Source of the DNA: Schmidtea polychroa | Taxonomy: Eukaryota | DNA: 64,000 bases | Direction of reading: 5' to 3' | NCBI GenBank assembly: GCA_044892525.1 | Contig: CM097885.1 | Span: forward strand, 13,022,001-13,086,000 | In this document: positions 4,169 through 53,755 of the stretch, piece by piece | Position numbering within the stretch: the first letter of the stretch is position 1 | Layout: every line of letters starts with the position of its first letter | The notes under the pieces: generated by a model | What the model was told of the DNA's origin: nothing | The model's database searches: none | The model's input: only the letters and a program-made list of their open reading frames with translations | Translations under genes and position numbers: made by a program

Positions 4169-4217
<49 letters not shown>

Positions 4218-5362: not shown

Positions 5363-5827
5363 TTAATTAAGTGATAATAAAAAATCTAAAAATTCTTTTC
5401 CTTCAATTATTGATTTAATTTCAGATATGATATTATCAACTATACATTTGTAATCAATATTTTTTATTCCAAGAATTTCTATCTTACCGCTAGCGAATAT
5501 ATTTACACACATAGGGTTATATTTTATATATCTCAAAGCTGGAAATAATTCTGGTTCATAAAAGCATGGTATTAATTTAGCTAATTTATTTAAATTACAA
5601 GAAAAACCTATATCGGAAGTTACGGTTATCGATTGTATTTCTAAATCATAAACATTATATTCACTAGCTTTGATTATTTCCTTACACCCCATAATTCTAC
5701 ATTTACCAGTTTTGAAATATATTATTGGATATTTATTACTTCTATTGATAAGTTGTTGTGGTTTCCCTATTGGAAATACCATTTTTGATACATCAGTTTT
5801 TGCCCTGTAATTTATATTTGAAAGCAT
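5363..5827 (-). CDS. TATA-binding-protein (TBP)-like protein encoded by the Polinton, 154 aa, intronless
   Basis: YEPELFPALRY...VNIFASGKIEILGIK matches TBP repeat 2 (YEPELFPGLIY...LLIFVSGKVVLTGAK). IIYFKTGKCRIMGCK matches repeat 1 (ALIFSSGKMVCTGAK). DLEIQSITVTSDI aligns with DFKIQNMVGSCDV. Confidence 0.88.
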   Translation of the reverse strand: MLSNINYRAKTDVSKMVFPIGKPQQLINRSNKYPIIYFKTGKCRIMGCKEIIKASEYNVYDLEIQSITVTSDIGFSCNLNKLAKLIPCFYEPELFPALRYIKYNPMCVNIFASGKIEILGIKNIDYKCIVDNIISEIKSIIEGKEFLDFLLSLN

Positions 5828-5931
5828 TTTAATGAAATAATTTTAAAAACTTTGATATATATAGGTATTTAAAAACAGAGTTCATTTAAATTATCAATAT
5901 AAACAATAATTATATAGTTTAAATTTAAAAA

Positions 5932-6570
5932 ATGGAATTACGAAATGATGCAGTATACCAAATCGTTGGTCCAAGTGGTAGCGGGAAAACTTTATTTGTT
6001 TGTAAATTACTAAAATCAAATTTGTTTAAAACAAAATTCAACAATATTTATTGGCATAGGGGCGCCGACGAAGAACACGGATTGACGCAATCAAGTTTCT
6101 GTCAGTTGAAAAACATGAAAATAGTAAAGGGCTTTGATAAAAACTGGTCAAGTCGTTTGAAGAAAGATGATGTCATCATTATCGATGATTTGTATCAAGA
6201 AGCCAATAAAGAAAAGGACTTTAATAATTTATTCACAAAAATCAGCAGACATGTTGGTGTAACAGTTATTTTCATAACACAAAATCTATTTCATCAAGGT
6301 GGAGCACATCGAACACGTAATTTAAATGTACAATATTTAGTTATTTTCAAGAATCCTAGAGATGCAACTGTCATTGATTTTCTTGGACGACAAGCATACC
6401 CTAATAACCGTAATTTTCTTATCAGTGCATTTCAAGATGCCACGAAAATACCGCATGGGTATATATTTCTCGATTTCACACAACAATGCCCTGATGATAT
6501 ACGCGTAAAAACAGATATTTTCAACCCAAAAGGTGCCATGGTATATAAACAAAGTTCAAAACAAAGTTGA
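5932..6570 (+). CDS. A32/FtsK-HerA-type genome packaging ATPase
   Basis: Walker A GPSGSGKT, Walker B IIIDD, and SRH...IFITQNLF motif typical of Polinton ATPases. Confidence 0.93.
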   Translation: MELRNDAVYQIVGPSGSGKTLFVCKLLKSNLFKTKFNNIYWHRGADEEHGLTQSSFCQLKNMKIVKGFDKNWSSRLKKDDVIIIDDLYQEANKEKDFNNLFTKISRHVGVTVIFITQNLFHQGGAHRTRNLNVQYLVIFKNPRDATVIDFLGRQAYPNNRNFLISAFQDATKIPHGYIFLDFTQQCPDDIRVKTDIFNPKGAMVYKQSSKQS

Positions 6571-6583
6571 AAACATATAAATC

Positions 6584-7072
6584 ATGTTTTCAAAAACAAG
6601 GATATCGGGTAAAAAACAACCAAAAGTTCCACCAACAACTAGTTATACTCCATCTAAAGAACTTATTACAGAAAATTTTCCTGCAATGAATCTTATTTCG
6701 AAAAATCCTAAACCTAAAAGTAAAACCACTAAGAAAGTAAAAGTTGTTAAAAATCATCGGAGTTTCCCGTTTTTCAATACATTGTTAAAGGCACCAAGTA
6801 TGAAAAGAAACAGTATTTTGCAATCATTTCCAAATTATGTTGTCGATGATTTACTCGATATTATACTTAAAGTAGTCAAAGGCAAGATTAAAATCAGTAA
6901 ATCTAAAAAGCAATTATTGAGTAAACATAGGAAACCTTTGCTATCATTAGTAAATAATAAAAATCGTCAACAAATGAGAAAAATTATATATAAACAACAA
7001 GGGGGATTTATCGGTGCATTGATACCTTTAGCAATATCATTATTAGGTGGAATAATAGGAAGTCGATCATAA
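6584..7072 (+). CDS. Basic core-like protein with C-terminal hydrophobic tail (adenovirus pX-like)
   Basis: Lys-rich body ending QQGG|FIGALIPLAISLLGGII, resembling the GG-cleaved hydrophobic tail of adenovirus pX. Confidence 0.6.
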   Translation: MFSKTRISGKKQPKVPPTTSYTPSKELITENFPAMNLISKNPKPKSKTTKKVKVVKNHRSFPFFNTLLKAPSMKRNSILQSFPNYVVDDLLDIILKVVKGKIKISKSKKQLLSKHRKPLLSLVNNKNRQQMRKIIYKQQGGFIGALIPLAISLLGGIIGSRS

Positions 7073-7133
7073 ACAATGGGTGCTAATCCTTCATTACCAG
7101 ACATTAAATTTAATATTAAATCTTCTTGTTGTA

Positions 7134-8192
7134 ATGGAGAAGATTTGGACGAACCCGGAAGACGAAGCCGGTTTTGGTGGAGTGGCAAAATTAAGGAAAA
7201 GAGTTCCGAATTCGAAAAAGGAAACTCAGAAGTGGTTATCAGACCAGCTTGCCTACAGTTTGAACAAACCAATGCGGAAACGATTCCCAACAAGAGCATA
7301 TAAAACATATGGAATAAATGATTTATGGCAAATGGATTTGATGGAGATGATACCCTATTCGAAAATTAACAATGGGTATAAATATATTTTAACATGTATT
7401 GATGTATTCAGTCGGTTTGCCCGAGCAATACCCGTCAAGGCAAAATCTGCAGATGAAATGTCTAAAGCTGTTAATCATTTATTTAAAGATGGACATCCTA
7501 AAAACTTGCAAACTGATTTAGGTATTAATATTATTATTTTTATTATTATTATTATTATTATTTTAGGTAAAGAATTCTACAACAGTAAAGTCAAGCAAAT
7601 CCTCAATAAATTGAAAATAAACCATTACTCAGTACATTCTCAATACAAAGCTGCTCATGTTGAAAGATTTAACCGAACTTTGAGAGATAGATTAAAGAAA
7701 TTATTCCTGCATCAAGGTAATAAAAAATGGGTATTGGTTTTACCAAAAATAATAACCAGTTATAATCACTCATCATATCAAGGACTGAATGGATTAAGGC
7801 CGATTGATATCACGTCAAAAACAATCTATTCTAAAAAACCTGAAAAAATTACAAAACCGAAATATAAAGTAGGTGACCATGTTAGAATTAGTAAAATTAG
7901 TGCATCACCATTTATTAAAAATTTCGATACAAATTGGAGTGATGAAGTCTTTGTAATTTCAAAAATAAATACTAAACAGAATCCTGTAATGTATGTCATC
8001 AAAGACAATGATAACAATATTGTACAAGGAAAATTTTATGAACAAGAATTACAAGTTATTCCTCCCCCAAAAGTATTTAGAATTCAGAAGATATTGAAAA
8101 CTAAAAAGGTCGGCAAGGATAAACAATACTATGTCAAATGGCATGGTTATCAAAACCCATCATGGATATCAGAAAAGGATCTAGTAAAGTGA
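7134..8192 (+). CDS. Retroviral-like DDE integrase with C-terminal chromodomain; 45-nt intron at 7522-7566
   Basis: WQMDL, CIDVFSRFA, QTDLG|KEF, VERFNRTL, PKYKVGDHVRI, and chromodomain YYVKWHGY...SW. The first ATG is at 7134; removing the GT..AG segment restores TDxGKEF. Confidence 0.95.
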   Translation: MEKIWTNPEDEAGFGGVAKLRKRVPNSKKETQKWLSDQLAYSLNKPMRKRFPTRAYKTYGINDLWQMDLMEMIPYSKINNGYKYILTCIDVFSRFARAIPVKAKSADEMSKAVNHLFKDGHPKNLQTDLGINIIIFIIIIIIILGKEFYNSKVKQILNKLKINHYSVHSQYKAAHVERFNRTLRDRLKKLFLHQGNKKWVLVLPKIITSYNHSSYQGLNGLRPIDITSKTIYSKKPEKITKPKYKVGDHVRISKISASPFIKNFDTNWSDEVFVISKINTKQNPVMYVIKDNDNNIVQGKFYEQELQVIPPPKVFRIQKILKTKKVGKDKQYYVKWHGYQNPSWISEKDLVK

Positions 8193-9205
8193 ATTTTTAT
8201 ACTATTTTACCAAGCAATAGTTGCCCGCTTATTCATCCAGATAATCAAGCCAGTAAATTCATGGTCAATCTCCAGAATCCGATTTCTTTAAATGGTGACT
8301 GGGAAGTTGCACTGCAAGATTTTACATTCGTGTACAATACATTCCCATTTTATAGTCAATGTAAGATTGATTTCAAAAGGAATGCTATGAAAACATGTAG
8401 TGGTATCTTTATTATCAGTAATTATGATAAAACATATCATATTCCGAATCAAATATTAGATCAGCATTGCTCTATGTTTTACAAGGATGGATTAAATATC
8501 AGTTGTGATTTTAAACCATTTACAATAACATTCGAATATATTGAAGATGCCAGACGAATGGGTTGCAATAAGTTGAAAAATGAAGTTATGGAAACAGATT
8601 ACTTATTACGCTTTGATCTATTTGAAGCAAACAGTGTAATGAGAGAAGAAATCAAAATTTCAGTGTCGTATAATAATGAAGTTGAAGAATCATTCACCTT
8701 CGCTGACGAATTATATATTGATAAACTTGATGTGTTACTTAAATATTTAAAGTACAATTGTTCACACATATTTAAAAGTTTGGACATTGTGAAAGATTTG
8801 TTATTTACCTTCAGTTTGAATGATGACATTTGCGAAGTTACATTTGATAAAAATTTGACAAATACACTTGGATTAGAGAAGCAACAATATCGGGAAAAAT
8901 CGGCTGGTATACGTAAACCAAGAATACTTGAACATCATCAACAAATGTCCATATATACTAATATGATTGAACCTATAATTGTTGGCGATTCCAGTGTTCC
9001 TCTATTGAAATCGGTATGGATTGGAAAATATGAACATGATGAAGTTGTCAATATAAATATAGATAATCCTATGTATTTACCAATTTCAAGCTCATGTATA
9101 AACAATATAGAAATAAATATTCGTGACGATAGTGGAAAACTTATAAACTTCCCAAAAGACTCAAAAACTCATTTGACACTACATTTTCGTAAAGTAGATG
9201 GCTAA
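8189..9205 (+). CDS. Minor capsid protein (penton-like)
   Basis: N-terminal FYTILPSNS...PDN...F.V.L...L.GDWEVAL and C-terminal IYTNMIEP..VGD...PLL, YLPI, IEINIRDDSG..I.F, LTLHFR. Start uncertain: GTG at 8189 overlapping the integrase stop, or ATG at 8138. Confidence 0.88.
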   Translation: MNFYTILPSNSCPLIHPDNQASKFMVNLQNPISLNGDWEVALQDFTFVYNTFPFYSQCKIDFKRNAMKTCSGIFIISNYDKTYHIPNQILDQHCSMFYKDGLNISCDFKPFTITFEYIEDARRMGCNKLKNEVMETDYLLRFDLFEANSVMREEIKISVSYNNEVEESFTFADELYIDKLDVLLKYLKYNCSHIFKSLDIVKDLLFTFSLNDDICEVTFDKNLTNTLGLEKQQYREKSAGIRKPRILEHHQQMSIYTNMIEPIIVGDSSVPLLKSVWIGKYEHDEVVNINIDNPMYLPISSSCINNIEINIRDDSGKLINFPKDSKTHLTLHFRKVDG

Positions 9206-9560
9206 TTCCGATATTATTAGTATGTATAGTGATAGCCAATCTGGTGGTGAATTACCATATTTTATCGGTAAACAGTACGGAACAGGTTGGTTAAAAACAA
9301 TAGGGAGATTTGCACTTCCTATTCTTAAACGTATTGGTAGTTTTGGCATGAAAACTGCTAAAGATGTGATTATGAATGAACAGAAAATATTACCATCTCT
9401 AAAAACAAATGCTTTAGCGGAGTTAGGGAAGGTTCTACCTGGAGTTGCTGGTATGTTTCAAAAAGATACGCCTACAGCCCCAGCTCCAAAACGTAAAGGA
9501 CATGGAATATCGCGTATAAACAAACGAATGAAAGGACATGGAACTATATTTGCAAAATGA
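9198..9560 (+). CDS. Small conserved Polinton virion protein with amphipathic helix (putative protease substrate)
   Basis: QSGGELPYF..KQYGTGWLKTIGRFALPILKRIG pattern, located between the two capsid genes, with a basic C-terminus. Confidence 0.7.
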   Translation: MANSDIISMYSDSQSGGELPYFIGKQYGTGWLKTIGRFALPILKRIGSFGMKTAKDVIMNEQKILPSLKTNALAELGKVLPGVAGMFQKDTPTAPAPKRKGHGISRINKRMKGHGTIFAK

Positions 9561-10780
9561 TTTGTGGTAAATCTGAATTATGTATATTTGATAGACCATC
9601 GCCCCAGGCTGTAATAGAATTTGGGGCCTTTGAGGAAGTTTTTCCTATGAATTCAATTACTGATAGTAGAAATGATATCGAGTTTTATATTAATGGTTCG
9701 CAAACTGAATATTTAGATTTGAACGATACTTTATTGACTGTTCAGATCAAAGTTGTAGATAAAGATAGAAAAGTTTTGGATGCCAATGCGGATGTATTAC
9801 CAAACAATTTCATGTTTCATACTCTGTTTAAAGATGCAGTGTTGGGATTTAATAATATCAAGATTGAGGGCGGAAATAATACATTCATTCACAAGGCTTT
9901 GATAGAAACTATTTTAAATTACAATTCAGATACTAAAAATACCTGTCTTACACCTATAGGTTATGCAGCAGCAGATGATGAAAGAAAAAAGTGGGTTAAA
10001 GGTTCAAAAGTATTCACTATGTGCTCATCATTACAACTTGATTTTATGGATCAACCGAAATATTTACTACCGGGAGTTAATGTACATATTAGATTGAAAA
10101 GGTCCGATTCTGCATTGTCTCTTACTAGTGCAACTGGTGCACCAATATGTCAATTAGTTGATGCAAAATTATTGGTGAGAAGAGTTCGAGTAGACCCGTC
10201 AGTATTAGCTGGTCATCAATTGGGTCTTAATTCAAAACATGCAATTTATCCTTTAAAAACAAAGGAAATTGTACAATTTGCTATTGCTAAAGGTGCTTCA
10301 TCATTCTATAAAGAACAAATATTTGGTGACAGAAGAATGCCTAATTTTATTCTGGTAACATTTCAAAGTGAAACGCAATATAATGGGTCTTATACTGCTT
10401 CCAGCTCAATTTTCAAAAACTTTGGTGTTACTTCATTGACTTTGTCGAAAAATACTGATTATAGAGAAACATATACTCAAGATTTCGAGAATGATAATTA
10501 CTGTGCGACATATATGCAGAGTATTGTTAGAAATCTTGGTTATTTAGATAAAAACTTGAATTGTGGAATAACTCTTGAAGAATTTAAAAGCAAATATCCA
10601 TTTTTCACATTTGTTTTAGCCCCCGATTTTGATTTAAATCAGAGTCAATTACCACAAAACGGAAATTTACGACTGGATATAAAGTTTGCAAAGGCCATTA
10701 CTGAACCAGTACATGTTATAATATATGGAGTATTTGAAAATGAAGTTCAGATTACTGCAAATAGAACCGTGCTAGTATAA
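9557..10780 (+). CDS. Major capsid protein (double jelly-roll)
   Basis: CGKSELCIF..P.PQ, IEFYI.G...YLDL..T.L.V, QPKYLLPGV...IRLKR, GNLRLDIKF and final ENEVQIT..R motifs of Polinton MCPs; intact 407-aa ORF. Confidence 0.92.
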   Translation: MICGKSELCIFDRPSPQAVIEFGAFEEVFPMNSITDSRNDIEFYINGSQTEYLDLNDTLLTVQIKVVDKDRKVLDANADVLPNNFMFHTLFKDAVLGFNNIKIEGGNNTFIHKALIETILNYNSDTKNTCLTPIGYAAADDERKKWVKGSKVFTMCSSLQLDFMDQPKYLLPGVNVHIRLKRSDSALSLTSATGAPICQLVDAKLLVRRVRVDPSVLAGHQLGLNSKHAIYPLKTKEIVQFAIAKGASSFYKEQIFGDRRMPNFILVTFQSETQYNGSYTASSSIFKNFGVTSLTLSKNTDYRETYTQDFENDNYCATYMQSIVRNLGYLDKNLNCGITLEEFKSKYPFFTFVLAPDFDLNQSQLPQNGNLRLDIKFAKAITEPVHVIIYGVFENEVQITANRTVLV

Positions 10781-11192
10781 ATGTATACAGAAACACCAAA
10801 AAGTTGTCATGGAGTAAGTTTTTCAATACTGTTTAATTTATTAAAGTAGTTCTGTTCAGGTCAATAGAATTGGAAAACAGATATTGGGAAATGAATTTGT
10901 AGGAGTTTTTCCTCTCGATAAAATCCCATATTTGAGCATTAATCAAGCCATAATCGTCAATACTCAATCGTCTCATCTTGGTGGAGAACATTGGATTGCT
11001 ATATATATGAAACCTAGTAATATATTCGTGTTCGATCCAATGGGTTTCTATTACCCTGCTTTGTTGGTATCAAAACTACAAACAATGGGGAAACCTATTG
11101 TATATAATAAAACTATGTTTCAAAATCCATTAACACAAACTTGCGGTCAACATTGTTTAGCTTGGTTGTTGTATAAAAAAATTGATGTTTAA
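10781..11192 (+). CDS. Adenain/Ulp1-like maturation cysteine protease, probably 2 exons (10781-10813, 10860-11192)
   Basis: FVGVFP.D, IVNT...GEHW, FDPMG, Q....TCGQHC (His/Asp/Gln/Cys catalytic set). The ATG follows the MCP stop directly; a GTAAGT..CAG 46-nt intron removes an in-frame stop. Confidence 0.88.
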
Positions 11193-11221
11193 TAAATGTA
11201 TCCTTTCCTTTGTTGTTGTTG

Positions 11222-11650
<429 letters not shown>

Positions 11651-11749
11651 TAATTAAATTTATTTTGAAAAATATTATTATCTAACTACACAATCATTGT
11701 GCATGCACAAAGTCATGACTAACAAAGATATGCAATCCCATTTGATACC

Positions 11750-11840
11750 ATTTGATTGGCTGATAGAGGAAAAAGTATTCAGAAATGTGTCTTAATTCTG
11801 ATTGGTTGAGACATGGAAATATTCCTGTTCTATATAAACA
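11750..11840 (+). promoter_or_regulatory. Candidate Pol II promoter of the pPolB gene
   Basis: Two GATTGG (reverse CCAAT) boxes at ~11754 and ~11800, and TATATAAA at 11831, about 80 nt before the ATG at 11915. Confidence 0.55.
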
Positions 11841-11914
11841 TTGACAAATTCCAAATTCATCACAATTTTATCAAAATTTTCAATTTCTAATTTTTCAAAA
11901 TTACAAACTTTAAA

Positions 11915-12967
11915 ATGTCTAACAATAACAACAACATATTAAGAAGTCTATTGACTAACGGTAATTTTATTATTTATTTATTTATTATATTTTATTCTTT
12001 ATTTTTTAGATGTGTTCGATTGGTATCAAGTTACTGAGGACGAAAGAATTTTGAATGTTGATAGGATTTTCGGTAAATTTAAATATTTTAATTTTTATGA
12101 AATTATTATTATTTTATTTAGAACCTATTATAATTAGCGACGATGATGATGTCGTGTTTATTGGACAAACTAATGCCCCGGATAATGATGCCTTATTTAT
12201 TAGGCAAAACAATGTTTTCAATAATCAAAGTAAATTTATTTTATTTTAGTATATTATTTTTTAAAAATCATTTAGTGTTTAATGTTGACATGGACGCCCC
12301 AATTAATAATGATGAGGAAAACAATATGGAAAATGTCCTCACTTCTATTGAGGAGAATAATGCTCACATATCTATTGATGAAAATAATGCCCTCACTTCT
12401 ATTGAGGAGGTAGCTGATGAGGAATCTGATTCCGATCAGGAATCACAATGTAAGCATTTATTTATTTTTATATTTCTTTAACAAAAATTTTTAAAATTTT
12501 CTTAATAACTTTTTTAAACATTTGCATAAATCTTAATCGTAAAATTATTATGTTTTTTGAATTATTATTGTAATTATGACGAAATTATGAAGAAATTACT
12601 ATGATGGAAATTATAAAGAAATTACTATGATGAAAATTATGAAAATACTATGATGAAACTAATATGACGAAAATGAAGAAAATTATGAAAATGTTATATT
12701 GAAATTATTATAACGAAAAATAGAGGAAATTATGAAAATGATGAAATTATGAAAATGATATTTGATGAAATTATTATGAAGAAATGAAGAAATTATTATG
12801 AAGAAATGATGAAATTATGAAAATGATATTTAATGAAATTAATATTATGATGAAATGATGAAATTATTATGAAATTATTAGGTTATGCAAATGTTTAAAA
12901 AAGTGATTAAGAAACTATAGTTTTAAAATATTCCTTGTAGTTTGCAATGAGCAACTACATTAGTTTA

Positions 12968-13046
<79 letters not shown>

Positions 13047-16000
13047 TATCTTGTAGTCTGCAGTGAGCATGCAGCTACATATCTCTTTTATTATGATTGC
13101 CCCAATAAATGTAGTCTGCAGTGAGCATGCAGCTACATATCTCTTTTATTATGATTGCCCCAATAAATGTAGTCTGCAGTCAGCATGCAGCTGCATCAAC
13201 TATTTATTACGTAATAAATACAATCTTTAAATGTAGTCTGCATGCAGCTGCATCAACTATTTATTACGTAATAAATACAATCTTTAAATGTAGTCTGCAT
13301 GCAGCTGCAACAAACTATTTATTGTGTAATAATTAACCCTTATTAAATATAGTCTGCATGCAGCTGCATCAAACTATTTATTTATTATGCAATAATTACA
13401 ATCTTTAAATGTAGTCTGCAGTGAGCATGCAGCTACATCAATAATAATAATACTAATATTTTTATTCTATACATATACTCTCTTTCTAATATTATTTTAA
13501 TAATTTAATATGTTTAGTTAGCATGCAACTAAAGACTCTTATTATATAAACATGTAGGTTACAGTGAGCATGTAACTACAGAAACAATAATAATAATAAA
13601 ATCCCTATTATAGTTTACAAGACTTTATTAATATTTTACAATTATTAATATTTATTTCATTTTTATATTGTATTTAAATGAAACATATATCAATAATTGC
13701 AAAAGAACTAAATGATAAAAGAAATATAAATGATATATTAATTTCATGATTAATAATAATTGATAAATATAATTAACAGGCAAATTTTATCCACATTACT
13801 GCCAGGCTTCAACTGGTCACTCAAATTTATGTCACAAAGTGATGAAAAAATATTATGGTCGTAAATTTTATGGCATCAAGTACTATATATGCCCAATATG
13901 CGAGACTTCCCATAGCATTAAATATTTAGAGTTTTACAGTATACATAAATCCCATTTAAATCAGTTCTCTTTAAATAAAAAGGATTTATTTAACAAACTA
14001 CGAAATACTGCAAAACCTATAATTAAAACTAATGTAAATAATATTACAAAACATGTAAATAATATTACAAAACCTGTAATTAAAACTAATACAAAACATG
14101 TAAATAATATTACAAAACCTCTAATTAATAATGTTATTAATGTAAATAATAATTTAAAAAGACCTGCTGTTAGTATTGGGTCTGATGCTCCCTCTAAAAT
14201 TAATAAATTAGAACAAATAACTGTGGTTAATAATATTCAAGTAGGCGGTTCAGTCGATATTGACGATGAACCTGAAATCGAAATTGATTTTAAGGGGGTT
14301 CGAAAGAATCTAAGATTTAATGTAGAAAAGGATAACATCGTTCAAATAACCATAACCGATAAAATCGTTAAGTTAAAACATGAAATAAACAGAATGGGGT
14401 CGGTGAAAATACAATTCTCTGTATTGATTCAATTTGAAAAAGATGGTGAAATTAAAGATAATTTCTTCTCGAATAGGGCAGAGGCTTTTTCAGATAGTTT
14501 TCTAAGTGAGGGGGTTCACAAATTAAATAATAAAATAGAAAAATTCACATATTTGGGTAGTGGATGGCGGGTTGTTAAAATCAAAGAAATAGATTTTATA
14601 TTAACAAAATTTACACATATGAATAGGCTAGCTGGACATAGTTACATCCCCACCCCATCATCTTTAAAATCTAAAAATGCAATAGTAAATGTTAAAAACA
14701 CCGATGATATGTGCTTTATATATAGTATTTTAGCACTTTTAAAACGTAATATTATACATAGACATAGGAACCGTGTTAGTTCCTATGAAAATTATCTCAA
14801 CGAGTTAAATTTTGACCCCATTTCCGACTGCCCAATGAAACTATGTGATATTCCTAAATTCGAGATGAAAAATAAGGATTTAAATTTAGCAATAAATGTT
14901 TTAACTTATAGAACGACCCCTGCTAAGCCTTTTGAAAATATAGTTGACGATAATTATATTCCACATCATCCCAAATTGGATATAATTCACCAATCTAAGG
15001 TTATAGGTGGTGAACCCATATACTTACTTCTATTGGAAGACGGAGATAATTTTCATTATACCGCAGTTTTTAATTTGCAAAGATTAATGAATTGTCGCTC
15101 TAGCAGTGAATGCGGCGTTAGAATTAAAGTGAACTGGTGCCCCCATTGTCTTAACGGATTTAGACTTAAAAATGCATTTGATATTCACGTTGCCTTATGC
15201 ATTAAAAACCAGATAGGTACTACTTTATATACCCTACCTAAAGAGAAAAATTTAATTTTTCAAAATTATGCGAAAACCATAACCCTGCCATTCGTGATAT
15301 ATGCAGACTTTGAATCAATTTTACCGGGGGATATAATACACCATCAAAAGCATTTGCCAATAACAGCAGGTTTATTATTAATAAATAATTATAATAACTC
15401 CAAATTTTATTATGAGTTTGTTGGGGATGATTGCATCTTATCTTTCTTGCGTAAGGTGGAGGAAATTCCTATGACAATTGTCCTACCATATTACGAAATT
15501 AATGGGAAAAAGCCCATGCAAACCTTGTCTTTCGCTGAAGAGCGGGCCTTTCGTGATTCCAGAACCTGTTATCTTTGTAAAAAATTCATTAGAAATAGAG
15601 TTAGGGATCATTGTCACTTTTCAGGTAAGTATCTTGGTGCTGCTTGTAGGAAATGTAATGTGTCTCGACGAATTCAGAAACAGTTACCTGTGGTTTTTCA
15701 CAATTTGAGGGGGTATGATCTTCATCATATTTTGAAGTATGGTTTGAATAATTTTCCTTCTTGGGAATTAAATATTATTCCGACCACTACTGAGAAATTC
15801 ATCTCTCTTATCGCGTACATTAACAAATTGTCTGTTCGTTGTATTGACAGCATGCAGTTTGTTAATTCGTCTTTAGCAAAAGCGGTTAAGACTCTTTCCG
15901 ATCTGCCTTTAACTTCTTCTGTTTTCGATGGCGCAATTGTTCGAGCCAAAGGTATCTTTCCTTATGACTTTGCCACATCTCTTGAGGTTCTAGAATCGAC

Positions 16001-17714
16001 TCTTGAATTGCCACCTATTTGGGATTCTGTGTCTAATGATGAATATGCATTAGCCTAAGTTATTTGGACTCAGCAAAACTGCAATAACATGTTAGATTAC
16101 ATGTTAACTTACCTTAAATTAGACGTGTTTCTCCTCGCAGACTATTTCCAACAATTCCGTGCAAAGGCCGTTGCTTACAATGGTCTTGAGCCTCTTAATT
16201 TCTATGGCATTCCCGGTATGTCATGGGCCTCTGCGCTTATGACATTAACGGAACCCATTGAACTTTTGCAGGACATGGAAATGTTTAATTTCTATGAAGG
16301 AGGGATACGGGGTGGGTTAACATTTGTTAACAAACATTATGTTGCAAGTTCTGAAGACACAGAACTCTTGTATATTGATATTAATAACTTGTATGGTTGG
16401 GCCTTAAGCCAAAATCTGCCTTATGCTGACTTTGTTTGGGTGTATGATGATCTTGATTCTGTCTTGAATGAATGTATGAATGCTGATATCGATAACCTTC
16501 CATATGGCTATACTATGGAGGTAGATATCGATATACCTGATTGTTTGCATGACTTTCTGAATGATTTTCCGCTTGCTCCGGAAAAGATGTGCCCGCCAAA
16601 TTCTAAAGTTGAGAAGCTGATGCTCACGCATTGGCCAAAGAAGAACCATGTTCTTCATTGGCGACTTCTCAAGTTGTATATAGAATTGGGGGCTATTATT
16701 AAAAATGTACATAGACCAATCAAATTTGAGCATGCACCCATTTTTAAATCTTACATAGACAAAAACACTAATTTGAGAGCCAATTCTACATGCGAATTAT
16801 ATAGGGATCTATACAAATTATTTAATAATAGTCTGTATGGGAAATCCGTAGAAAACCTTAAAAAACGGATGAATTTGAGGCTATGCAATTCAGCTGAAAA
16901 GATGATTGTATATGCTTCAAAGCCGACTTTCAAGAAATCTATCAAAATTGATGATGACTTGATTGCTGCACATCTCAATAAGGATTCTATATGTTTAGAC
17001 AGGCCTAGTTACATTGGCCAAACGGTGCTAGACCTGTCTAAACTGAGGATGTACCAGTTGCAGTATAAAGAATTGGCTAAATATAGAAATGAATTTAAAT
17101 GTGAGATAAATATCGTTGCCGGCGATACTGACTCCTTTTTTCTTGAGGTTAGGCACTGTAAGCTTGACACTCTTTTGCCGTCAATGATTCGTGACAATCT
17201 TTTAGACACTTCCAACTATGACCCTGCACATCCCTTATACTCTAGAAACCTTGATTCGGTGATAGGTAAATTTAAAGATGAAAGTAAAGGTCTAGGGTAT
17301 AAGGAATGGGTTTTCTTAAGACCCAAGTGCTATAGTTTGTTAGGGGTTAAAGATCATTTAAAGGCAAAAGGAGTTAGGTTAATAGGTACAGAAATTAGGC
17401 ACGATTCATATTTAGAATGCTACAATAACGACGTAGTATTTTCTGTGCCACAAAGTAAGATAGGGACGCGGAACCATCAATTGTACACATTTAAAAACAA
17501 TAAAATCGCGTTGACAAACAACGACGACAAGCGGTTTTGGGTGGGGAAAAATTCCAGTCTCGCATTTGGTCATTATTTAGCACTAGATGATATAAATGAT
17601 GATCAAATATTTGAAGAAGTTGGGGCACTATTCGGAGGATTAAGTCCAGATTTTGTTTCTGGTGATGATCCTAATGATGAAATTGATATTGACGATGTAC
17701 AATTGAGTGATTAA
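11915..17714 (+). CDS. Protein-primed family B DNA polymerase; predicted exons 11915-11960, 12010-12072, 12122-12229, 12276-12449, 13780-17714; single in-frame TAA at 16056-16058
   Basis: Exonuclease motifs YADFES, FHNLRGYD, YLKLDV. Polymerase motifs YIDINNLYG, KLFNNSLYGK, GDTDS. Also GSGW, an NTDDMCF...FHY region and an EndoVII-like CxxC..RDHCH insert. The two large ORFs share a frame, and four phase-1 GT-AG introns join the upstream exons in frame. Confidence 0.93.
12937..13580. repeat. Array of ~10 palindromic units GTAGTCTGCA(GTGAGCA)TGCAGCT(A/G)C with ~58-bp period
   Basis: Copies at about 12937, 13053, 13111, 13169, 13232, 13290, 13350, 13411 and 13554, plus an isolated copy near 18016. 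Confidence 0.85.
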
Positions 17715-18075
17715 GCGATTTTAATATATCTTTTTCCTGTGATAAATAAATATAACTTTGTAAAAACATTGATTTGTGTTGATTTTTATTAATGAAAAGT
17801 TTTCGTATTTCTTTCTATGGATAAAAATCATTATATTGTGTAATATTATTAAACATTCCTTAAGTGTTTAAACATAGAAAGTATATTAAAAATTGTTTTA
17901 TTATTGAAAACTAGTAATGTTGTCACTATGGAACAGGACTTTGTTTTGAGCCATTAAAAGAATTTAAATTTTTATAAAGTTTTATTTAATTTGATAATAC
18001 TGTTCATATTTACTTTAGTTTGCAGTGAGCATGTAACTAAATATCTTTGAAAAAAAAATAATAATAATAATAATA

Positions 18076-18162
18076 TGAACAGTACCCATGTGACTTGTTG
18101 AATGTGAGTAGTACCCATGTGAGCAATACCCATAGTGGGACAGAATATTTTGTCGGATAGAT

Positions 18163-18238
<76 letters not shown>

Positions 18239-19237
18239 TATAATAATTATAATAATAATAATAAATGACCTTGAAAAAATAAATGACCTTGAAAAAATAA
18301 ATGACCTTGAAAAATATAATGATCACTTAATTAAAACAAAAAATTAAATTAAAAAATGACCTTGAAAAAAAAGTCCTTTATGAGTCACGCGACCTTGAAA
18401 AAATAAATGACCTTGGAAAATAAATGACCTTGGGAATGACCTTGAAAAAATAAATGACCTTGAAAAAATAAATGACCTTGGAAATAATAATATTTTGAAA
18501 AATAAATGACCTTGAAAATGGTCTCGGGAAAACGTTAATAATTTTGCCAATAATAATTATATTAATAATATTTATATATCAATAGTTAGATCTTGCACTA
18601 AGCTTCAAAATAAGCTATCGATTAATAAATTCGGATAATGGGAACGATAACTTTTGGGATGATAAAAAGTAGGGGCCCGCCAGACCACTTAATAATTATA
18701 TGACCTTGAAAATGATTTTTGGTAAAATGTTAATAACTTTGTCAATAATAATGATGATGATACCTTCAATAGCTCATTCGAAAGGTCTTGCATTGGGCTT
18801 TAAAATAAGTGTTTGATTAATAAAATCTGTTGGCGGGAACATTAATTTTTGGGATGAAAAAAAGTAGGGGCCCTCCCGGCCAATTAATAATATTTTGGAA
18901 AATAATAATAATTTAACGTTGAAAAGATGGTGGTCATCAATTGTTAATAACATTAAAACTATTAAAGATATATAAGATACCTATAGCTCATTCGAAAGGT
19001 CTTGGACTGAGCTTTAAGATGAGGTATCGTCCAATAAAATCCGTTGGCGGGAACATTAATTTTTGGGATGAAAAAAAGTAGGAGCCCGCCAGACCACTTA
19101 ATTAAAACAAAAAATTAAATTAAAAAAAAATAATAAATGACCTTGACCTTTTATTTTTAAAAAAAAATTTTCCCGGGGGGGAGGGGGTATATGTGGTCTG
19201 GAGGGCCCATGGTCTGGGGAGCCCACATCATACTACT
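18076..19237 (-). repeat. Right terminal inverted repeat of the Polinton
   Basis: Near-identical reverse complement of 3143-4304; similarity decays at the inner end. Confidence 0.93.
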
Positions 19238-19906: not shown

Positions 19907-20749
19907 CATTATTATTATATAAAAAATAATAAGAAGAAACATAAGAAATTTTAAAAATTTTTATTAAGGCAATCCAGTAAATTTGAAAAAATCCATAAAC
20001 TATAAAGTAGTATATTGTGCAGGAGTATTTTTATGTAGGTCAATTCAAAAGTAAGGGCCCACTCACTCAAAGTAGTCACATACACACAGGATATATATTT
20101 TCAATAAAAGTTTCAAAATATTGATGATAAAATTCAATATTGGGTGTTCACAGGTGAGTTTTCAACAGTATAGGGATAATTTCACTGTGAAGATGGAGAT
20201 GGGGTAATTTATGAGATCTTATTTAAATAAAATTTTGTTATATTTCTCAAGTATTCAGTAGAATACGATGATTGATGAAATCAATTTAATATATTTATTA
20301 TACTATTTGTTTTCCATAAAACATATTTTTTCAGATTGTTTAATATTTAAAAAAACATACTAGGCCATCAAATGTATAATTAGTATTAAATAGTCTTAGT
20401 AATTATATCTCCTAGAATGACATGAGTAGGTAGTTAGTGGCCCCCCGCAGCAATGACCCCCCGGGGGGAGGGGGGTTCTGCTGCAACTTTTTTTTTGCTG
20501 CAACTTTTGATTACGCAATTTTTCAGACTATAGTGAGGGGGTCTCGATGGTCCTGGGATTTCCAATACAAATAAAATTTTTTCAATACAAAAAGGTGGTC
20601 TACACTAAAAAAGCATGGTAATTTAAGGTCTCAAGATATTTTCAATACAAATAGATGGTCTACACTAAAAAAGCCAAGGATTTTTCAGACTATAGTGAGG
20701 TGGGTCTTCTTGGTCCTGAGAACTTCAATATAAAAAAGGTGGTAAATTT

Positions 20750-21270
20750 TTTCAATTACAGTAAATAATGGTCCAAATTTTTAAAATACAGTAAATTATG
20801 GTTCTAAAAAATTAAAATACAGTAAATAATGGGTCTAAAAATTAAATTACAGTAAATTATGGTCCAAATTTTAAATTAAAGTAAATTATGGGCTAAGATT
20901 TTTGAATTAAAGTAAATGATGGTCTAAATAAGTAAATCAAGGTCCAAAATTTTAACTTAGAGTAAATTATGGGCTCAGATTTTTGAATTAAAGTTATCAA
21001 TGGGCTCAAATAACTAAATTAAGGTTCAAATTTTTAAATAAAAGTAAATTATGGGTATAAAAATTCAATTACAGTAAATAATGGTCTAAATTTTTGAATT
21101 AATGTAAATTTAGGTTCTAAAATATTAAATTAAAGTAAATAATGGTCCAAATTTTAAAATTAAGTAATCAATGGTAAAAAATTTTAAATAAGTAAATTAA
21201 AGTAATAATTTTTAAATAAGTAAATTAAAGTAATGTAATAAGTAAATTAAAGTAAGATTTTTAAATTTAT
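20750..21270 (+). repeat. ~30-bp subterminal tandem repeats (AAATTACAGTAAATTATGGTC..)
   Basis: Directly visible; mirrored at 32280-32860. Confidence 0.8.
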
Positions 21271-21549
21271 TAACAAAATGTTGAAATAATAGAAGGTGTT
21301 TGAGAATTGAAATTTTTTAATGAAAATTTTTATGAAATAATTTTTTAAGTAATTTTTAATGGAGATTTTTATGAAATATTTTTCAATGGTAATTTTTATT
21401 GGAAATTTTTATGGAATAATTTTTTAAGTTAATTTTTAATGGAGATTTTTATGAAATATTTTTCAATGCTAATTTTTAATGGAACGTTTTAAGATAATTT
21501 TTAATGGAAATTTTTATGAAATATTTTTCAAAGACAAATTTTAATAATA

Positions 21550-22900
21550 ATTCAACAACAAACCAACAACTTAGTACCAACATGTATTTACAATTAGATA
21601 CTAACAACCAAAAACAAGCAACCAACTAGGTACCAGATACCAAGTACTAACAACCGCCAACAACCAGATACCTACAACTAGTTACTAACAACATGTTACC
21701 TGATACCAAGTACTTACAACTAGATACCTTGCACTAACTAACTCTCAAACAACCAGATACTTACAACCAAGTACAAGATACCAAGTACTAACAACCGAAA
21801 ACAACCAGATACCTACAACTAGTTACTAACAATTAGTTACTAACAACCAGTTACCTGCTACTAAGTTCTTACAACCAAGTACTAACTACCACCTACCATG
21901 TACTAACAACCAAAAACATGCAACCAACTAGCTAACTAACAACCAGTTACCTGATACCAAGTACCTACAACTAGATACTAACAACATGTTACCTGATACC
22001 AAGTACTTACAACCGACAACAAGCAGGTACTAAGCATCATCAACCAACTACTAAGTACATACAACCAACTAACAACTACTTACAACCAACATCAACCAAC
22101 TACCTACAACTAGTTACTAACAACCAGTTACCTGATACCAAGTACTTACAACCACCCACCCATTAACCAACATCAATCAGCTAACAACTAGCTACCACCT
22201 ACCCATTAACTAGCTACAACCAGCTAACTAGGTACTAGATACCAAGTACTAACAACCCACAAAAACCAGCTAACAACCAGCTAACAACCACCTACCAAGT
22301 ACTAACAACCGACAACAACCAGTAACTTACGAACATGTATTTACAACCAGATACCTACAACTAGTTACTAACAACTAGTTACCTGATACCAAGTACATAC
22401 AACTAGATACTAACAATCAGTTACCTGCTACTAAGTACCTAAAACCACCTAACAAGTACTAACAAACGACAACAACCAGGTACTAAGCATTATCAACCAT
22501 GTACTAACAACTAGATACCAAGTACTAACAACCAGTTACCAACTACTAAGCACCTACAACCACCTACCAAGTACTAACAACCGCCAACAACCAGATACCT
22601 ACAACTAGATACTAACAACCAGTTACCTGCTACCAAGTACCAACATCAACCAACTAGCTACAACCTACCAAGTACTAACAAACGCCAACAACCCATTAAC
22701 TAGCTACTAAGTACTATCAACCTACAACAACCAGGTACTAAGCATTATCAACCAAGTACCTACAACCAACAACAACTAGCTACCACCTACTAAGTACTTA
22801 CAACCAAGTATAAGATACCTAGTACTAAGCACTGTCAACCAAGTACTAACAACTAGATACCAGGTACTAAGCACTGTCAACTAGATACCAAACACTTACA
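21550..22900 (+). repeat. C/A-rich shuffled short-motif array (ACAACCAGTTACC, GATACCAAGTACTAAC)
   Basis: Dozens of permuted copies, mirrored as a shorter G/T-rich array at 31290-32015. Confidence 0.85.
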
Positions 22901-23207
22901 ACTAAATGACCACATGAAATTATTGGTTAAATATGAAAATAAGGGTTATATTTAGTTGTTAAGTAAATTATGGTGTAAAATTAAGTAATAAAGAATAATT
23001 AGGTAAATTAAGGATAAATTAAGGAAAATTAAGGTTCAAAATTTAAAATTAAAGCTAAAGGAGTAAATTAAAGTAATAATTTTTAAATAAGTAATGTAAT
23101 AAGTAAATTAAACTAAGATTTTTAAATTTATTATCAAAAGATTGAATAACCACCAACTTTTTTGAGAAATGTAATTTATAATGAAAATTTAAATGGAAAT
23201 TTTAATG

Positions 23208-23280
<73 letters not shown>

Positions 23281-29200: not shown

Positions 29201-30753
29201 TTTGATGATATTTGTAATAATATGGATAAAGGTTTGAAATATAGTCATTTAAGAGATTTTAAGGAATCTTGTTAGTTTGAGGTGAATATATGATGTTTAA
29301 CAAGTACTTATCGATAAGATGCTATTCTTAAAAGATAGAGATGATTGATTTTAGATGATTTTATTGGAGAATGCGCTTGAATATACCAATTATTGTCATT
29401 TAAATGAATTTACTGGTTTATTAGTTTTCTAGTTTCTTTTGGAATTTAATGATAATTATTTTTATTGTAGATTGACGACTTTGATAATTGTAATGAATTC
29501 ATACTGAATTTTGTGTATAATTTGAGGAATTAGTAAATAGATTTGAGTACATGTATTACTTTTAAAAAAAATAATTAAAATTAATTTTATTTCAATTAAT
29601 TTATTCAATCTAAATCAATTATCTACTAAATCTTATCTTATTAATTTATTATCTTAGTTGATTCAACTTGAATGATCAAATATTTTTTTTATTTACTGGA
29701 TGATTAATGATTCAAATTTAATGTTCTTTCTTGTCCATTAATTAAATTTTTATGATATTTATTTTGAATAATTTAAATTTTTACAATAATTTAATCAATT
29801 TTTATTGATGCCTTGAGTTCAATTAATTTTTCATCCAATATTTTCAGGCGAAGAGCATTTTCTTTTAAAGATCAATCTGTTAGTACATAGTTGTTGGTTG
29901 TAAGTAGTTGGTTGACTTTTTCGATTTTGATAAGAAGATAGTGTATGTGATGAAGAATATTTTGTATTTAATTGCTATTATTTTTATGTGTGGTTAGTTG
30001 ATTGTTGGTACTTGGTATCTAGTTGTTGGTATCTTGTATTTGGTAGTTGGTACAGTGTTGTTTACTGATTGTTGTTATATAGTTGTAGGTTGATAATGCA
30101 TAGTAGCTTGTTGATGTTGGTTGTATGTACTTGGTATCTAGTTGTTAGCTGGTTGTTAGTAGCTAGTTAATGGGTAGGTGGTGGTTGAGTGTTAGCAATA
30201 CCCTTACGACTAGTACCCTTACGACCAGTACCTTTATGACCAGTACCCTTAGGGGTCAAAACATCCTGTCGGATAAACTCAGAGTATATATAATAAAACT
30301 GATCAACAATAAGTATTTATTGAATGCGATTTTTACTTTGCAATAATTAGTTATCATTTAAAAGAAGAATGTTTTGTAAATTAGAATTCATTAGTCTTTC
30401 ATTGTAATTTAAATTATTTTGAATTTCATGTGGTGTTTTAAAGTGATTGAGCTGTGGTTTTTTGATGAAAATCATCATTTTTGTTAAATTTGAAAAGGTT
30501 TTTCTACTGATTGTAATCAAAATTATTATAGAAGCTGTATAAAAAAATATTAATTTAAAAAGCATTTCATAAAGTACAATAAAGAATATTTAGTTGAGTG
30601 TAAGTAGTTAGTTGTAAGTATGTGGTTGTTTGAGAGTTAGTTAGTTAGTACGTGGTACCATGTTCAAAGTATTTGTTAGCATCTAGTTAAAAATATTTAG
30701 TAACCGATTGTTGGGAACTGTTGAATTATTATTATTATTATTATTGTTATTAC

Positions 30754-30842
<89 letters not shown>

Positions 30843-33735
30843 CATTAAAATTTTCATTAAAAATTACATTTCTCAAAAAAGTTGGTGGTTATTCAATCTT
30901 TTGATAATAAATTTAAAAATCTTACTTTAATTTACTTATTTAGCTTTAATTTAAAATTTGAACCATTGGTTACTTAATTTTAAATTTTGAACCTTAATTT
31001 ACTTATTTAAAATTTTTAACTTTAATTTACCTAATTATTCTTTATTTCTTAATTTTACACCATAATTTACTAAACAACTAATTATAACCCTTATTTTCAT
31101 ATTTAACTAATAATTTCATGTGGTCATTGATTAATTGACGAAGATTTGCATCTAAAATTAACATTGAAAATCCCAGAAAACTTTCACCTTAAATTGACTT
31201 TAACTTTAATATTTTAGACCATTGATTACTTAATTTTCAAATTAGACATTAATTTACTTATTTAACCAATAATTTCATGTGGTCATCTGGTTGTAAGTGT
31301 TTGGTATCTAGTTGACAGTGCTTAGTACTAGGTATCTAGTTGTTATTACTTGGTTGATGATGCTTAGTACCTGGTTGTTAGTTGATTGTTAGTATCTGGT
31401 ACCTAGTTGGTTGGTTGTTTTGGTTGTATGTACTTGGTAACAGGTAACTGGTTGTTAGTAACTAGTTGTAGGTTGTAAGTGTTTGGTATTTAGTTGACAG
31501 TGCTTAGTACTTGGTTGTTGTTGGTTGTTGGTACTTGGTAGGTGGTAGCTAGTTGTTAGCTGGTTGTTGTTGGTTGTATGTACTTGGTAGGTGGTAGCTA
31601 GTTGGTTGTAGGTATCTAGTTGTAGGTATCTGGTTGGTTGTTTGCTTTTAGTGTTAGTACTTGGTACCTAGTTGGTTGCTTGTTTTTGGTTGTTAGTACT
31701 TGTTAGGTGGTTGTAGGTACTTAGTATCAGGTAACTAGTTGTTAGCTGGTTGATGGTTGTTAGTACTTGGTATCTAGTAATTGGTTGTAAGTATCTGGTT
31801 GTTTGAGTTTTAGTTAGTACGTGGTATCTAGTTGTAAGTACTTGGTAGCAGGTAATTGGTTGTTAGTAACTAGTTGTAAGTACTAGGTAGGTGGTTGTGA
31901 GTAGTTGGTAGCAGGTAACTGGTTGTAATTAACTAGTTGTAAGTACTAGGTAGCAGGTAACTGGTTGTTAGTACATGGTAGTAAGTTACTGGTTGTTGGT
32001 ACTAAGTTGTTGGTTTTTTGTTGAATTATTATTAAAATTTGTCTTTGTAAAATATTTCATAAAAAATTTCATTAAAAATTATCTTAAAAATTTCCATCTA
32101 AAATTAACATTGAAAAATATTTCATAAAAATTTCCATTAAAAATTAACTTAAAAAATTATTCCATAAAAATTTCCATTAAAAATTACCATTGAAAAATAT
32201 TTCATTAAAATTTTCATTAAAAAATTACAATTCTCAAACACCTTCTATTATTTCAACTTTTTGTTAATAAATTTTAAAATCTTACTTTAATTTACTTTAA
32301 TTTACTTATTTAAAAAATTATTACTTTAATTTACTTATTTAACTTTAATTTTAATTTTTTACTTTGATTACTTAATTTTAAAATTTGGACCATTATTTAC
32401 TTTAATTTAATATTTTAGAACCTAAATTTACTTTAATTTAAAAATTTGGACCATTATTTACTTTAATTTAATATTTTAGAACCTAAATTTACTTTAATTT
32501 AAAAATTTGTACCATTATTTACTTTAATTTAAAATTTTGGACCATTATTTACTTAAATATAAAAATTTGAACCTTAATTAACTCACTTGAGCCCATTTAT
32601 TACTTTAATTCAAAAATCTTAGCCCATAATTTACTGTAATTCAATTTTTAGACCCATAATTTACTGTATTTCAATTTTTAGACCCATAATTTACTGTAAT
32701 TTAATTTTTAGACCCATAACTTACTTTAATTCAATTTTTAGACCCATAATTTACTGTAAATCAATTTTTAAGAACCATAATTTACTTTGATTCAAAAATT
32801 TGGACCATAATTTACTGTAATTTAATTTTTTAGAACCATAATTTACTTTAATTGAAAAAATTTACCACGTTTTTGAGTGTAGACCACCTTTTTCTATTGA
32901 AGTTCTCAGGACCAAGTAGACCCACCTTAATTTAATTCGAAAAATCCATGCTTTTTTATTGATAGTCGGATTTTTGTATTGAAAATATCCTGAGACCTTA
33001 AATTACCATGCTTTTTTATTGAAGACCACCTTTTTGTATTGAAAATATCCTGAGACCTTAAATTACCATGCTTTTTTATTGAAGACCACCTTTTTGTATT
33101 GAAAATATCCTGAGACCTTAAATTACCATCCTTTTTTATTGATAGTCGGATTTTTGTATTGAAAATCCCAGGACCATCGAGACCCCCTCACTATAGTGTG
33201 ATAAATCCTTGGCTTTTTTAGTGGTAGTCGGATTTTTGTATTGAAAATCCCAGGACCATCGAGACCCCCTCACTATAGTGTGAAAATTCCATGCTTTTTT
33301 AGTGGTAGTCGGATTTTTGTATTGAAAAATTTTTTTTGTATTGAAAATCCCAGGACCATCGAGAATCCCTCACTATAGTCTGAAAAATTGCGTAATCAAA
33401 AGTTGCACCAGAACCCCCCCCCCCCTGGGGGGGGGTCATTGCTGCGGGGGGCCACTAACTACCTACTGACATGATATGTATATCAACTGCTATCTGTACT
33501 AAATATCGAAATGAAACACGTATTTACTATCATTTACAATACATTTACTATCGATTGGAATGACATTTTATGTTAAAAAATAAATCTAAAAAAAATTCTA
33601 AAAATTAATTTATGTTTAGATATTTTATTATAATCAAGGGTTTTTCTTAGAATCAAAATCTTTACTCATAGTCAAATCTATTGAAGGTTTGGGCAAATTT
33701 ATACATTCTGACCTATTATTAAGCCCATTTTATTA

Positions 33736-39046: not shown

Positions 39047-53755
<14,709 letters not shown>

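Follow-up and report, generated by a model that had tools for sequence, protein, structure and literature searches.

The window analysed here is a 64,000-nucleotide stretch of Schmidtea polychroa DNA (contig CM097885.1, positions 13,022,001 to 13,086,000) from a eukaryotic assembly of 781 Mb, and our subject is a gene-less palindrome of 13,043 bp that lies in it at positions 20425-33467 (G000:C1:13042425-13055467). The palindrome starts with AGTAGGTAG and ends with CTACCTACT, the reverse complement of its start, and GACATG stands on either side of it as a perfect 6-bp target-site duplication (TSD). The last 33 bases are identical at both ends, and this 33-mer has four occurrences in the genome. 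Of the length of the element, 92% consists of two arms, of 6,085 and 5,924 bp, on either side of an unpaired middle of 1,034 bp (26510-27543). A sequence-only reading of the window had proposed a non-autonomous Polinton-type element with precisely these limits, termini and TSD, with arms of ~6.1 and ~5.9 kb and with more than 90% inverted repeat, and our measurements agree with it on each of these points. The element has coding Polintons as relatives elsewhere in the genome, and another Polinton, of a sister family, is its neighbour in the window. Its anatomy is as follows.

20419-20424, plus strand: left TSD GACATG, present as a single copy at the empty site in public run X6
20425-33467, no strand: whole gene-less palindrome, defined by its ends, an open reading frame (ORF) scan and arm alignment
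20425-21552, plus strand: left terminal region, in common with the coding Polintons' terminal repeats; contains the end motif, G/C runs and tandem arrays of 30/60/82 bp
21553-22904, plus strand: A/C-rich degenerate minisatellite, missing from coding copies
22961-23301, plus strand: incomplete second copy of the terminal repeat's inner part, with (AAT)31 at its end
23330-25016, plus strand: outer non-repetitive arm (segments D and E1), 7.5-10% from the right arm
23704-23835, plus strand: TATCCGACA/GGGTAY repeat motif
25017-26509, plus strand: inner left arm, differing from the right arm at 4 positions in 1,493 bp
25160-27364, plus strand: inner core, which aligns collinearly (66-81%) with gene-less palindromes from the neighbour's family
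25957-26090, plus strand: module of ~130 bp, recognised by a 32-mer search and by joints that skip it
26510-27543, plus strand: unpaired centre; a third TATCCGACA/GGGTAY motif lies here, in minus orientation
27544-29036, minus strand: inner right arm, mirror of 25017-26509
29037-32024, minus strand: outer right arm; its minisatellite is shorter, and it contains (ATT)39
32025-33467, minus strand: right terminal region in common with the coding Polintons
33468-33473, plus strand: right TSD GACATG, read from the sequence

The likeness of the two arms is uneven. The inner 1,493 bp are 99.7% identical, and their 4 mismatches are all private to the window copy in our sample; the outer 250-bp bins range from 56 to 96% with many indels, and the non-repetitive segments of the outer arm are 7-10% apart. 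The minisatellite at 21553-22904 contains 18 minus-strand near-matches to a 10-mer of the terminus (shuffle mean 2.1, maximum 7). The left arm from 21553 to 26509 is strongly strand-skewed (GC skew to -0.5, A-rich), a skew that is mirrored in the right arm and is seen more weakly in the palindromes of the neighbour's family. The TATCCGACA/GGGTAY motif also marks the inner edge of the terminal repeats in the neighbour and is possibly a cis-signal that the two elements share. Over the motif at 26937-27058, summed contig depth was several-fold above that of the surroundings in all four public runs used below.

Gene content and insertion state

The palindrome holds no ATG-initiated ORF of at least 100 aa, and its longest stop-free frame, at 86 aa, falls below the median of 107.5 in 100 block shuffles, which bears out the earlier claim that no credible ORF is present. 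An Rfam search of the palindrome gave no match at E ≤ 1, and the proteins of the coding Polintons described below gave no match to the gene-less arms by tblastn at E < 1e-8. Across the family alignments 75 of 234 indels were divisible by 3 and there was no codon periodicity; the ORF matches, among those listed, were chance frames within the terminal tandem arrays. Given the lack of helper-protein matches and of a codon signal, we rejected the idea that the arms are coding sequence or decayed genes. Neither protein-primed PolB nor integrase, ATPase, protease or capsid is encoded by the palindrome, and its inverted repeats are not the short ones of an autonomous Polinton.

Four public runs (X1, X2, X6 and X8) were compared with the left junction. 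A contig from run X6 passes from the left flank through one GACATG into the right flank of the window, so that the check for an empty site suggested by the sequence-only reading found one; the insertion is therefore real and polymorphic and, because it is polymorphic, young. In run X1, which possibly derives from the source sample, a contig crosses the left junction of the filled site with zero differences. The contig from run X2 ends before the junction, and run X8 yielded nothing.

An assembly or library fold-back artefact would account for the many copies with kilobase-long identical arms, and the run contigs are short, with none of those listed spanning the centre. However, direct TSDs with unrelated flanks were found in 59 of the 69 paired elements that we mapped, the empty site has one 6-mer, the spacer of the family is conserved and asymmetric, the arms are 5-10% apart in many copies, and arm sequence is present in runs of four studies. 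We therefore regard an artefact as extremely unlikely. The sequence-only reading had named two outcomes that would tell against it, such an artefact and a lack of other copies and coding elements with these ends, and neither arose.

The family, its coding relatives and a sister family

The 17-base end motif exists in two variants, with 2,749 and 2,262 exact matches in the genome (5,011 in total) and 0 for a reversed control, and matches to the palindrome were found on contigs C1-C4. We mapped 69 paired elements, the window copy included, and classified them by eye from the maps. Gene-less palindromes were the largest group, with 33 members; a further 11 palindromes contain two polymerase genes, and 6 elements are coding Polintons. 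The remaining 19 have a single arm, are chimeric or rearranged, or contain nested inserts, and were excluded from the arm tests. A perfect 6-bp TSD flanks 28 of the 33 gene-less palindromes, and all 28 are distinct. The least biased sample comes from the first 21 Mb of contig C1, where 21 A-variant pairs measure 1-18 kb. Of the 20 pairs that make up the sample, 17 are gene-less palindromes, 2 are coding and 1 is a chimera of gene-less and structural parts. The 21st pair, L031, is one-armed and gene-less. Among 20 mostly T-variant elements from the same region there were 11 polymerase palindromes, 3 gene-less palindromes and 0 fully coding copies. At ~21 gene-less palindromes per 21.9 Mb, scaling by end density extrapolates to ~600 genome-wide, or ~1% of the genome.

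The six coding Polintons have the same ends as the palindrome, and all have perfect TSDs. They measure 16.2-17.1 kb, with one of 19.2 kb, and encode a TBP-like protein, an A32-type ATPase (Pox_A32), an rve integrase, a protein-primed PolB (PF03175, E 1e-26) and a protease-like ORF identified by eye. Their 407-aa protein is predicted to fold as a double jelly roll (predicted local distance difference test, pLDDT, 91.8; Foldseek E 2e-15), and the closest folds to this model are the capsids of iridoviruses, chloroviruses and virophages; by sequence it had 0 matches in the PDB. The frame of the integrase appears to be broken by a short intron-like stretch. What the palindrome has in common with the fully coding copies is limited to its terminal 1.1-1.4 kb and an internal stretch that repeats part of this region. 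The palindrome is 67-73% similar to non-coding sequence in the inner part of some polymerase arms. A 32-mer from the module at 25957-26090 was present in 0 of 6 other gene-less copies tested and stands upstream of the polymerase in 10 of the 11 polymerase palindromes.

Taken together, the 6-bp TSDs, the AGT-type termini shared with coding copies and the dispersed sites are those of a non-autonomous Polinton, as had been claimed, and the coding element with the same termini that the sequence-only reading called for exists. We believe that these same-ended Polintons of 16-17 kb are likely to be the helper, and that the palindrome, having their ends and no genes, would be mobilised in trans by their enzymes. 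Their proteins are 44-84% identical in amino acids to those of the neighbour in the window, which fits the earlier suggestion that the helper might come from a family related to the neighbour. The neighbour itself was rejected as direct helper because it has other ends and because there is a coding family that stands closer.

The family also contains other arrangements. The palindromes with two outward-pointing polymerase genes and no structural genes measure 11-16 kb (L053, L060, L062, L065, L069, L072, L076, L080, L083, L051 and L058). L100 and L015 are TSD-flanked chimeras of a gene-less arm and a structural module, and L057 is a TSD-flanked element of 8.2 kb with a structural module and no polymerase; these three suggest, as read from their composition, that half-genomes may be exchangeable. 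A pairing of two structural modules did not occur among the elements sampled. In L025 and L026 (G000:C1:213919884-213948217), head-to-tail 4-kb units, each composed of the terminal repeat, the TBP-like gene, the ATPase and part of the integrase, lie inside one 28-kb element. Other Polinton end types are nested in or fused to the family in L048, which holds an 11.6-kb palindromic part, in L133, which holds a 6.9-kb TSD-flanked polymerase element, and in L136.

The neighbour represents the sister family in the window:

3143-19237, no strand: neighbouring coding Polinton of a sister family, 16,095 bp, TSD GTAGCC, ends different from those of the palindrome

The difference in termini had been noted in the sequence-only reading. 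The end motif of the neighbour occurs 465 times in the genome. The first 100 occurrences listed include ten other pairs 10-16 kb long, all of which were examined; 8 of the 10 are gene-less palindromes, 7 of them with a perfect TSD, and 2 are coding. One more gene-less palindrome of this family, of 13,233 bp and with its own TSD, is nested in L139. The inner core of the sister-family palindromes is collinear with the window element at 66-81% and their spacers show local matches, the local matches of core and spacer between the gene-less palindromes of the two families being 66-92%. Since the core is common to two helper families, the gene-less form represents a shared lineage and not a one-off deletion. 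It would thus resemble a viral satellite, as a persistent lineage of its own that is largely unrelated to the coding sequence of its helper.

A core kept between two families might also be expected of a hairpin that the host tolerates or finds useful, either because it is transcribed into long double-stranded RNA that silences Polintons or because its copies act as decoys, and the long near-perfect inverted repeats do include the terminal region of the helper. However, the arms have no coding sequence in common with the helper, and the copies are young, dispersed and polymorphic, like selfish elements. We consider a host role of this kind very unlikely.

Several further features were observed in the window and in the two Polinton families. 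The polymerase of the neighbour is split over two ORFs of 738 and 541 aa (13842-17714). In both the neighbour and the helper family an Endonuclease VII-like segment (PF02945) precedes the polymerase domain, and a TBP-fold protein (PF00352) lies head-to-head with the packaging ATPase (window 5363-5827 and L019:2259-2732, both on the minus strand; E 7e-14 and 3e-16). The sequence TCAAGGTCA, which we take to be an FTZ-F1/SF-1-type nuclear-receptor site, has 10 copies in 3235-4139 and 9 in 18266-19138, the terminal repeats of the neighbour, and 0 elsewhere in the window. Beyond the palindrome, a 1.3-kb imperfect palindrome (84%) at 43278-44558 adjoins a hAT transposase ORF (40936-42786, 616 aa), and a 4.6-kb element at roughly 56740-61336 has inverted repeats of ~800 bp (77%); it contains a fragment of an rve integrase (58646-58969) and an ORF with C2H2 zinc fingers (59606-60025).

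Centres, arms and size

Full-length gene-less copies have arms of 7-8.5 kb around a conserved, asymmetric, AT-rich spacer, which measures 895-1,087 bp in 12 copies. This spacer is missing from the window copy, and the unpaired 1,034 bp in its middle corresponds to the next stretch of arm. The ~1.03-kb spacer of the sequence-only reading is thus correct as an unpaired stretch but is arm sequence in full-length copies. From the missing spacer and the unpaired arm sequence we infer that the window copy is a central-deletion form, which would have lost ~2 kb of its centre. Clusters of TTAYGYAA, presumably a bZIP-type site, lie at the edges of gene-less spacers (L013:7688-7714 and 8644-8696) and centrally within coding and polymerase elements (L019:9359-9476; L053:6560-7365); in the window copy they are gone with the central deletion.

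A mini-Polinton of 270-1,030 bp occupies the centre of four polymerase palindromes (L060, L062, L069 and L072) and of an element nested in L136. The flanks of these mini-Polintons are inverted up to the terminal base, reading the same inward from both sides, and there is no direct TSD. The centre of L053 is alike by eye, the flanks of L076 are unlike, and in the other five polymerase palindromes an inner terminus is present once or not at all. Exactly such a centre would result if a strand that stopped at the right terminus of an inner element folded on the repeats of that element and was extended along the element's 5' part, and inverted flanks are the mark that would be expected of fold-back priming. 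By extrapolation, the gene-less spacer may have arisen by the same route.

The two arms of a copy are either nearly identical or clearly different, arm identity being bimodal across copies. For three segments, the arms were within 1% of each other in 16 of 28, 14 of 25 and 12 of 21 copies, as against between-copy median differences of 8.8, 6.8 and 6.1%; in the innermost segment the two arms were within 1.2% in 14 of 14 copies. Polarity was scored on 25 copies with at least two segments, leaving out the outer 2.9 kb of tandem arrays: the arms were the same throughout in 13, the same inside only in 7, the same outside only in 0, different throughout in 3 and patchy in 2. In divergent segments both alleles were present in other copies at 920 of 1,107 discordant sites, as against 19 of 45 in near-identical segments, and in segment D of the window copy 43 discordant sites were shared and 9 private. 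Among 26 left arms four-gamete conflict rose with distance from 0.25 to ~0.6 (Spearman 0.08; 0 of 300 permutations), recurrent mutation adding to the base level. The best relatives of the two outer arms of the window copy differ (98% and 96%), and neither arm lists the other among its 40 hits. The tips match within copies, positions 18-33 being identical in 10 of 17 (permutation mean 1.7, maximum 6); we used this within-group test because the figure of identical terminal 33-mers in 19 of 33 copies is inflated by the choice of pairs. Given the empty site and only 4 private mismatches in 1,493 bp, the 7-10% divergence of the outer arms did not arise by point mutation in place. We read the arms as a record of homogenisation and recombination.

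The explanation that we favour, with moderate confidence, is that the window holds a recent insertion of a high-copy, gene-less, palindromic relative of a resident Polinton family, which likely borrows the protein-primed polymerase and the integrase of that family and whose arms would be reset by fold-back and mixed by recombination. The shared ends, the 6-bp TSDs at many loci, the empty site, the copy number, the helper genes and the mosaic arms support it directly. First, the ends of the palindrome would serve in trans as origins and as substrates of the integrase. During extrachromosomal strand-displacement copying, the displaced strand would then snap back on itself to form an almost complete duplex with an origin at hand, likely giving the palindrome a replication advantage over its helper. 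Occasionally a 3' end would fold back at or near the centre and copy one arm from the other, producing identical arms. Recombination between molecules would subsequently swap the outer parts of one arm, leaving arms that are the same inside and different outside, and would also mix modules (gene-less with structural, polymerase with polymerase). Finally, the window copy would stem from such a recombinant that also lost ~2 kb of its centre.

The Y-chromosome palindromes are homogenised by gene conversion, and the main rival to fold-back is that the arms were homogenised and mixed after insertion, by arm-to-arm and ectopic conversion in the chromosome that is strongest near the centre. Such conversion predicts the inner-same polarity (7 against 0), the matching tips and the internal patches of identity seen in L067 and L116, and thousands of ectopic donors are present. 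However, the outer arms of this young insertion differ over 4.5 kb with no near-identical donor found among 40 scored hits for each arm, identical arms are common to sister copies at different loci (L086/L106 and L104/L114), and the inverted flanks that end at an inner terminus at several loci are left unexplained; the nested insertions of L133, L136 and L139, each in one arm only, are a weak further point. Conversion in the chromosome therefore fits less well than fold-back with the young insertion and the inverted-flank centres, and we consider it unlikely.

Several observations also weigh against the fold-back explanation. Classification of the copies was by eye, and most of them lie at one end of a chromosome. 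The central mini-element is clear in only 4 of the 11 polymerase palindromes, and the spacer of the gene-less family is without mini-Polinton termini. In segment E1 of the window copy 22 of the 40 discordant sites are private and 18 shared, and no donor of at least 99% was found for either outer arm among 40 scored hits each. Random fold-back predicts copies that are the same outside only, of which there were 0 of 25, so that the model needs folding near the centre, and arm-to-arm conversion in the chromosome could give the same polarity. Every step of the mechanism is read from integrated copies, and neither free nor packaged molecules of the palindrome were observed. Furthermore, panhandle folding, which has been proposed as a homology-restoring step in protein-primed replication, is said in the accessible text of the same source to lack direct evidence (PMC11886824).

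The sequence-only reading had also suggested that the repeats are stuffer that keeps the element at a packageable size. On this idea the palindrome is a packaged, defective-interfering genome that fills the capsid of the helper, and the helper does encode a predicted double-jelly-roll capsid and a packaging ATPase. Adjacent end pairs peak at 16-18 kb (14 of 54), and full gene-less copies, at 14.7-17.7 kb, are of similar length to the coding copies. Without inserts, gene-less palindromes measure 6.7-17.7 kb; no simple palindrome above 17.7 kb was found among the pairs examined, and each of the seven pairs of 19-29 kb contains additional inserts or genes. Intact vertebrate Mavericks likewise spread by ~10% around 17 kb, which the accessible part of that report reads as a capsid constraint (PMC8097293). 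However, TSD-flanked members of 2.35, 5.75, 6.7, 7.9 and 8.0 kb exist and the window copy has 13.0 kb, doubling of an ~8-kb arm yields an equal size without selection, six further pairs (four of 33-40 kb and two of 20.6 kb) lie outside the examined set, L136 (26.8 kb) may have moved as one unit, and no particles are known. The small members with TSDs and the ~2 kb lost here indicate that filler is not needed for insertion. An upper size limit is plausible, but a need for filler is not supported. Size selection is compatible with the explanation that we favour, and it is only as the main reason for the length that we find it doubtful.

A more general proposal, which we advance tentatively and believe somewhat less often right than wrong, is that Polintons carry general, long-lived, genome-length self-complementary satellites. 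Exchangeable half-genomes (structural, polymerase and gene-less) would fold back and recombine as free linear DNA and be packaged up to the limit of the capsid, and the palindromes would be the main parasite of the helper and would also provide the first fossil record, on a population scale, of extrachromosomal Polinton replication primed by panhandles. According to the accessible part of one report, Polinton virions are inferred and particles have never been seen (PMC8097293); extrachromosomal replication of Polintons is likewise inferred and not observed. The polarised arm identity and the inverted-flank polymerase palindromes lead to sequence-level predictions of fold-back priming, inter-molecule recombination and a size ceiling, and snap-back DNA would be easily detectable in natural tissue. 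In addition, searches based on genes miss such elements, though by our extrapolation they may make up ~1% of the genome. An effect of long palindromes on genome stability is also to be expected.

Comparison with known systems

Foldback/Galileo-type transposons have long inverted arms with internal tandem repeats and move by cut-and-paste transposases, and miniature inverted-repeat transposable elements (MITEs) are under about 1 kb. The palindrome resembles both in its inverted arms with tandem repeats and little or no coding sequence. Unlike it, they use cut-and-paste transposases and have other ends and TSDs. The description of the palindrome as MITE-like is right in that the element is non-autonomous, but its interior does not appear to be a deleted helper and its family, without inserts, is far above the length of a MITE (6.7-17.7 kb).

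The palindrome is like Polintons/Mavericks in its AGT-type ends, its 6-bp TSD, its overall length and the terminal region of 1.1-1.4 kb in common with local coding copies. It is unlike them in that it is gene-less, in that its interior does not come from helper genes and in that it outnumbers coding copies in our samples. Non-autonomous or defective Polintons were reportedly described by Kapitonov and Jurka in 2006, and the palindrome would be like these in keeping the ends and taking its enzymes from trans. Intact vertebrate Mavericks, in the accessible part of the report, measure 12.7-24.6 kb, with terminal inverted repeats (TIRs) of 46-1,447 bp, a 6-bp TSD and an AGT end motif (PMC8097293); the arms of ~6 kb here, and of 7-8.5 kb in full copies, contrast with these TIRs of ~0.05-1.5 kb. 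Degraded copies are known in vertebrates (PMC8097293), whereas the Polintons of Anolis were reported without non-autonomous copies (PMC3014272), again as far as the accessible texts go. Unlike the defective Polintons described there, which are eroded or deleted coding elements, the palindrome family is young, gene-less and self-homogenising. We found no description of palindromic gene-less Polintons in a literature search that lay outside Repbase, subscription journals and supplements, nor is such an element described in the accessible parts of PMC8097293, PMC6431247, PMC11886824, PMC10924063, PMC11296320, PMC8363768, PMC3014272 and the bioRxiv preprints 10.1101/2025.02.07.637071 and 10.1101/2024.01.15.575659. 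The Polintons of butterflies have gene-bearing TIRs of 2 kb, according to the accessible text (bioRxiv 10.1101/2025.02.07.637071). The polymerase palindromes are like these in that their terminal repeats have grown inward and their genes are duplicated; in contrast to the butterfly elements, which are coding and have repeats of ~2 kb, the repeats here meet near the centre.

The likeness to replicating genomes is closer. Palindromic derivatives of protein-primed replicons include phi29 mini-genomes and the hairpin plasmids of yeast pGKL. Adeno-associated virus (AAV) has snap-back, self-complementary genomes, as far as the accessible part of the source describes them (PMC10924063), and the palindrome is like these in being self-complementary, in keeping its ends and in its likely origin from fold-back during strand-displacement copying. 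Unlike such snap-back genomes and palindromic derivatives, which are transient or laboratory products, the palindrome integrates, is inherited, reaches the length of its helper and forms lineages across helper families. We believe that, among the systems compared here, the palindrome works most like a self-complementary satellite or snap-back genome.

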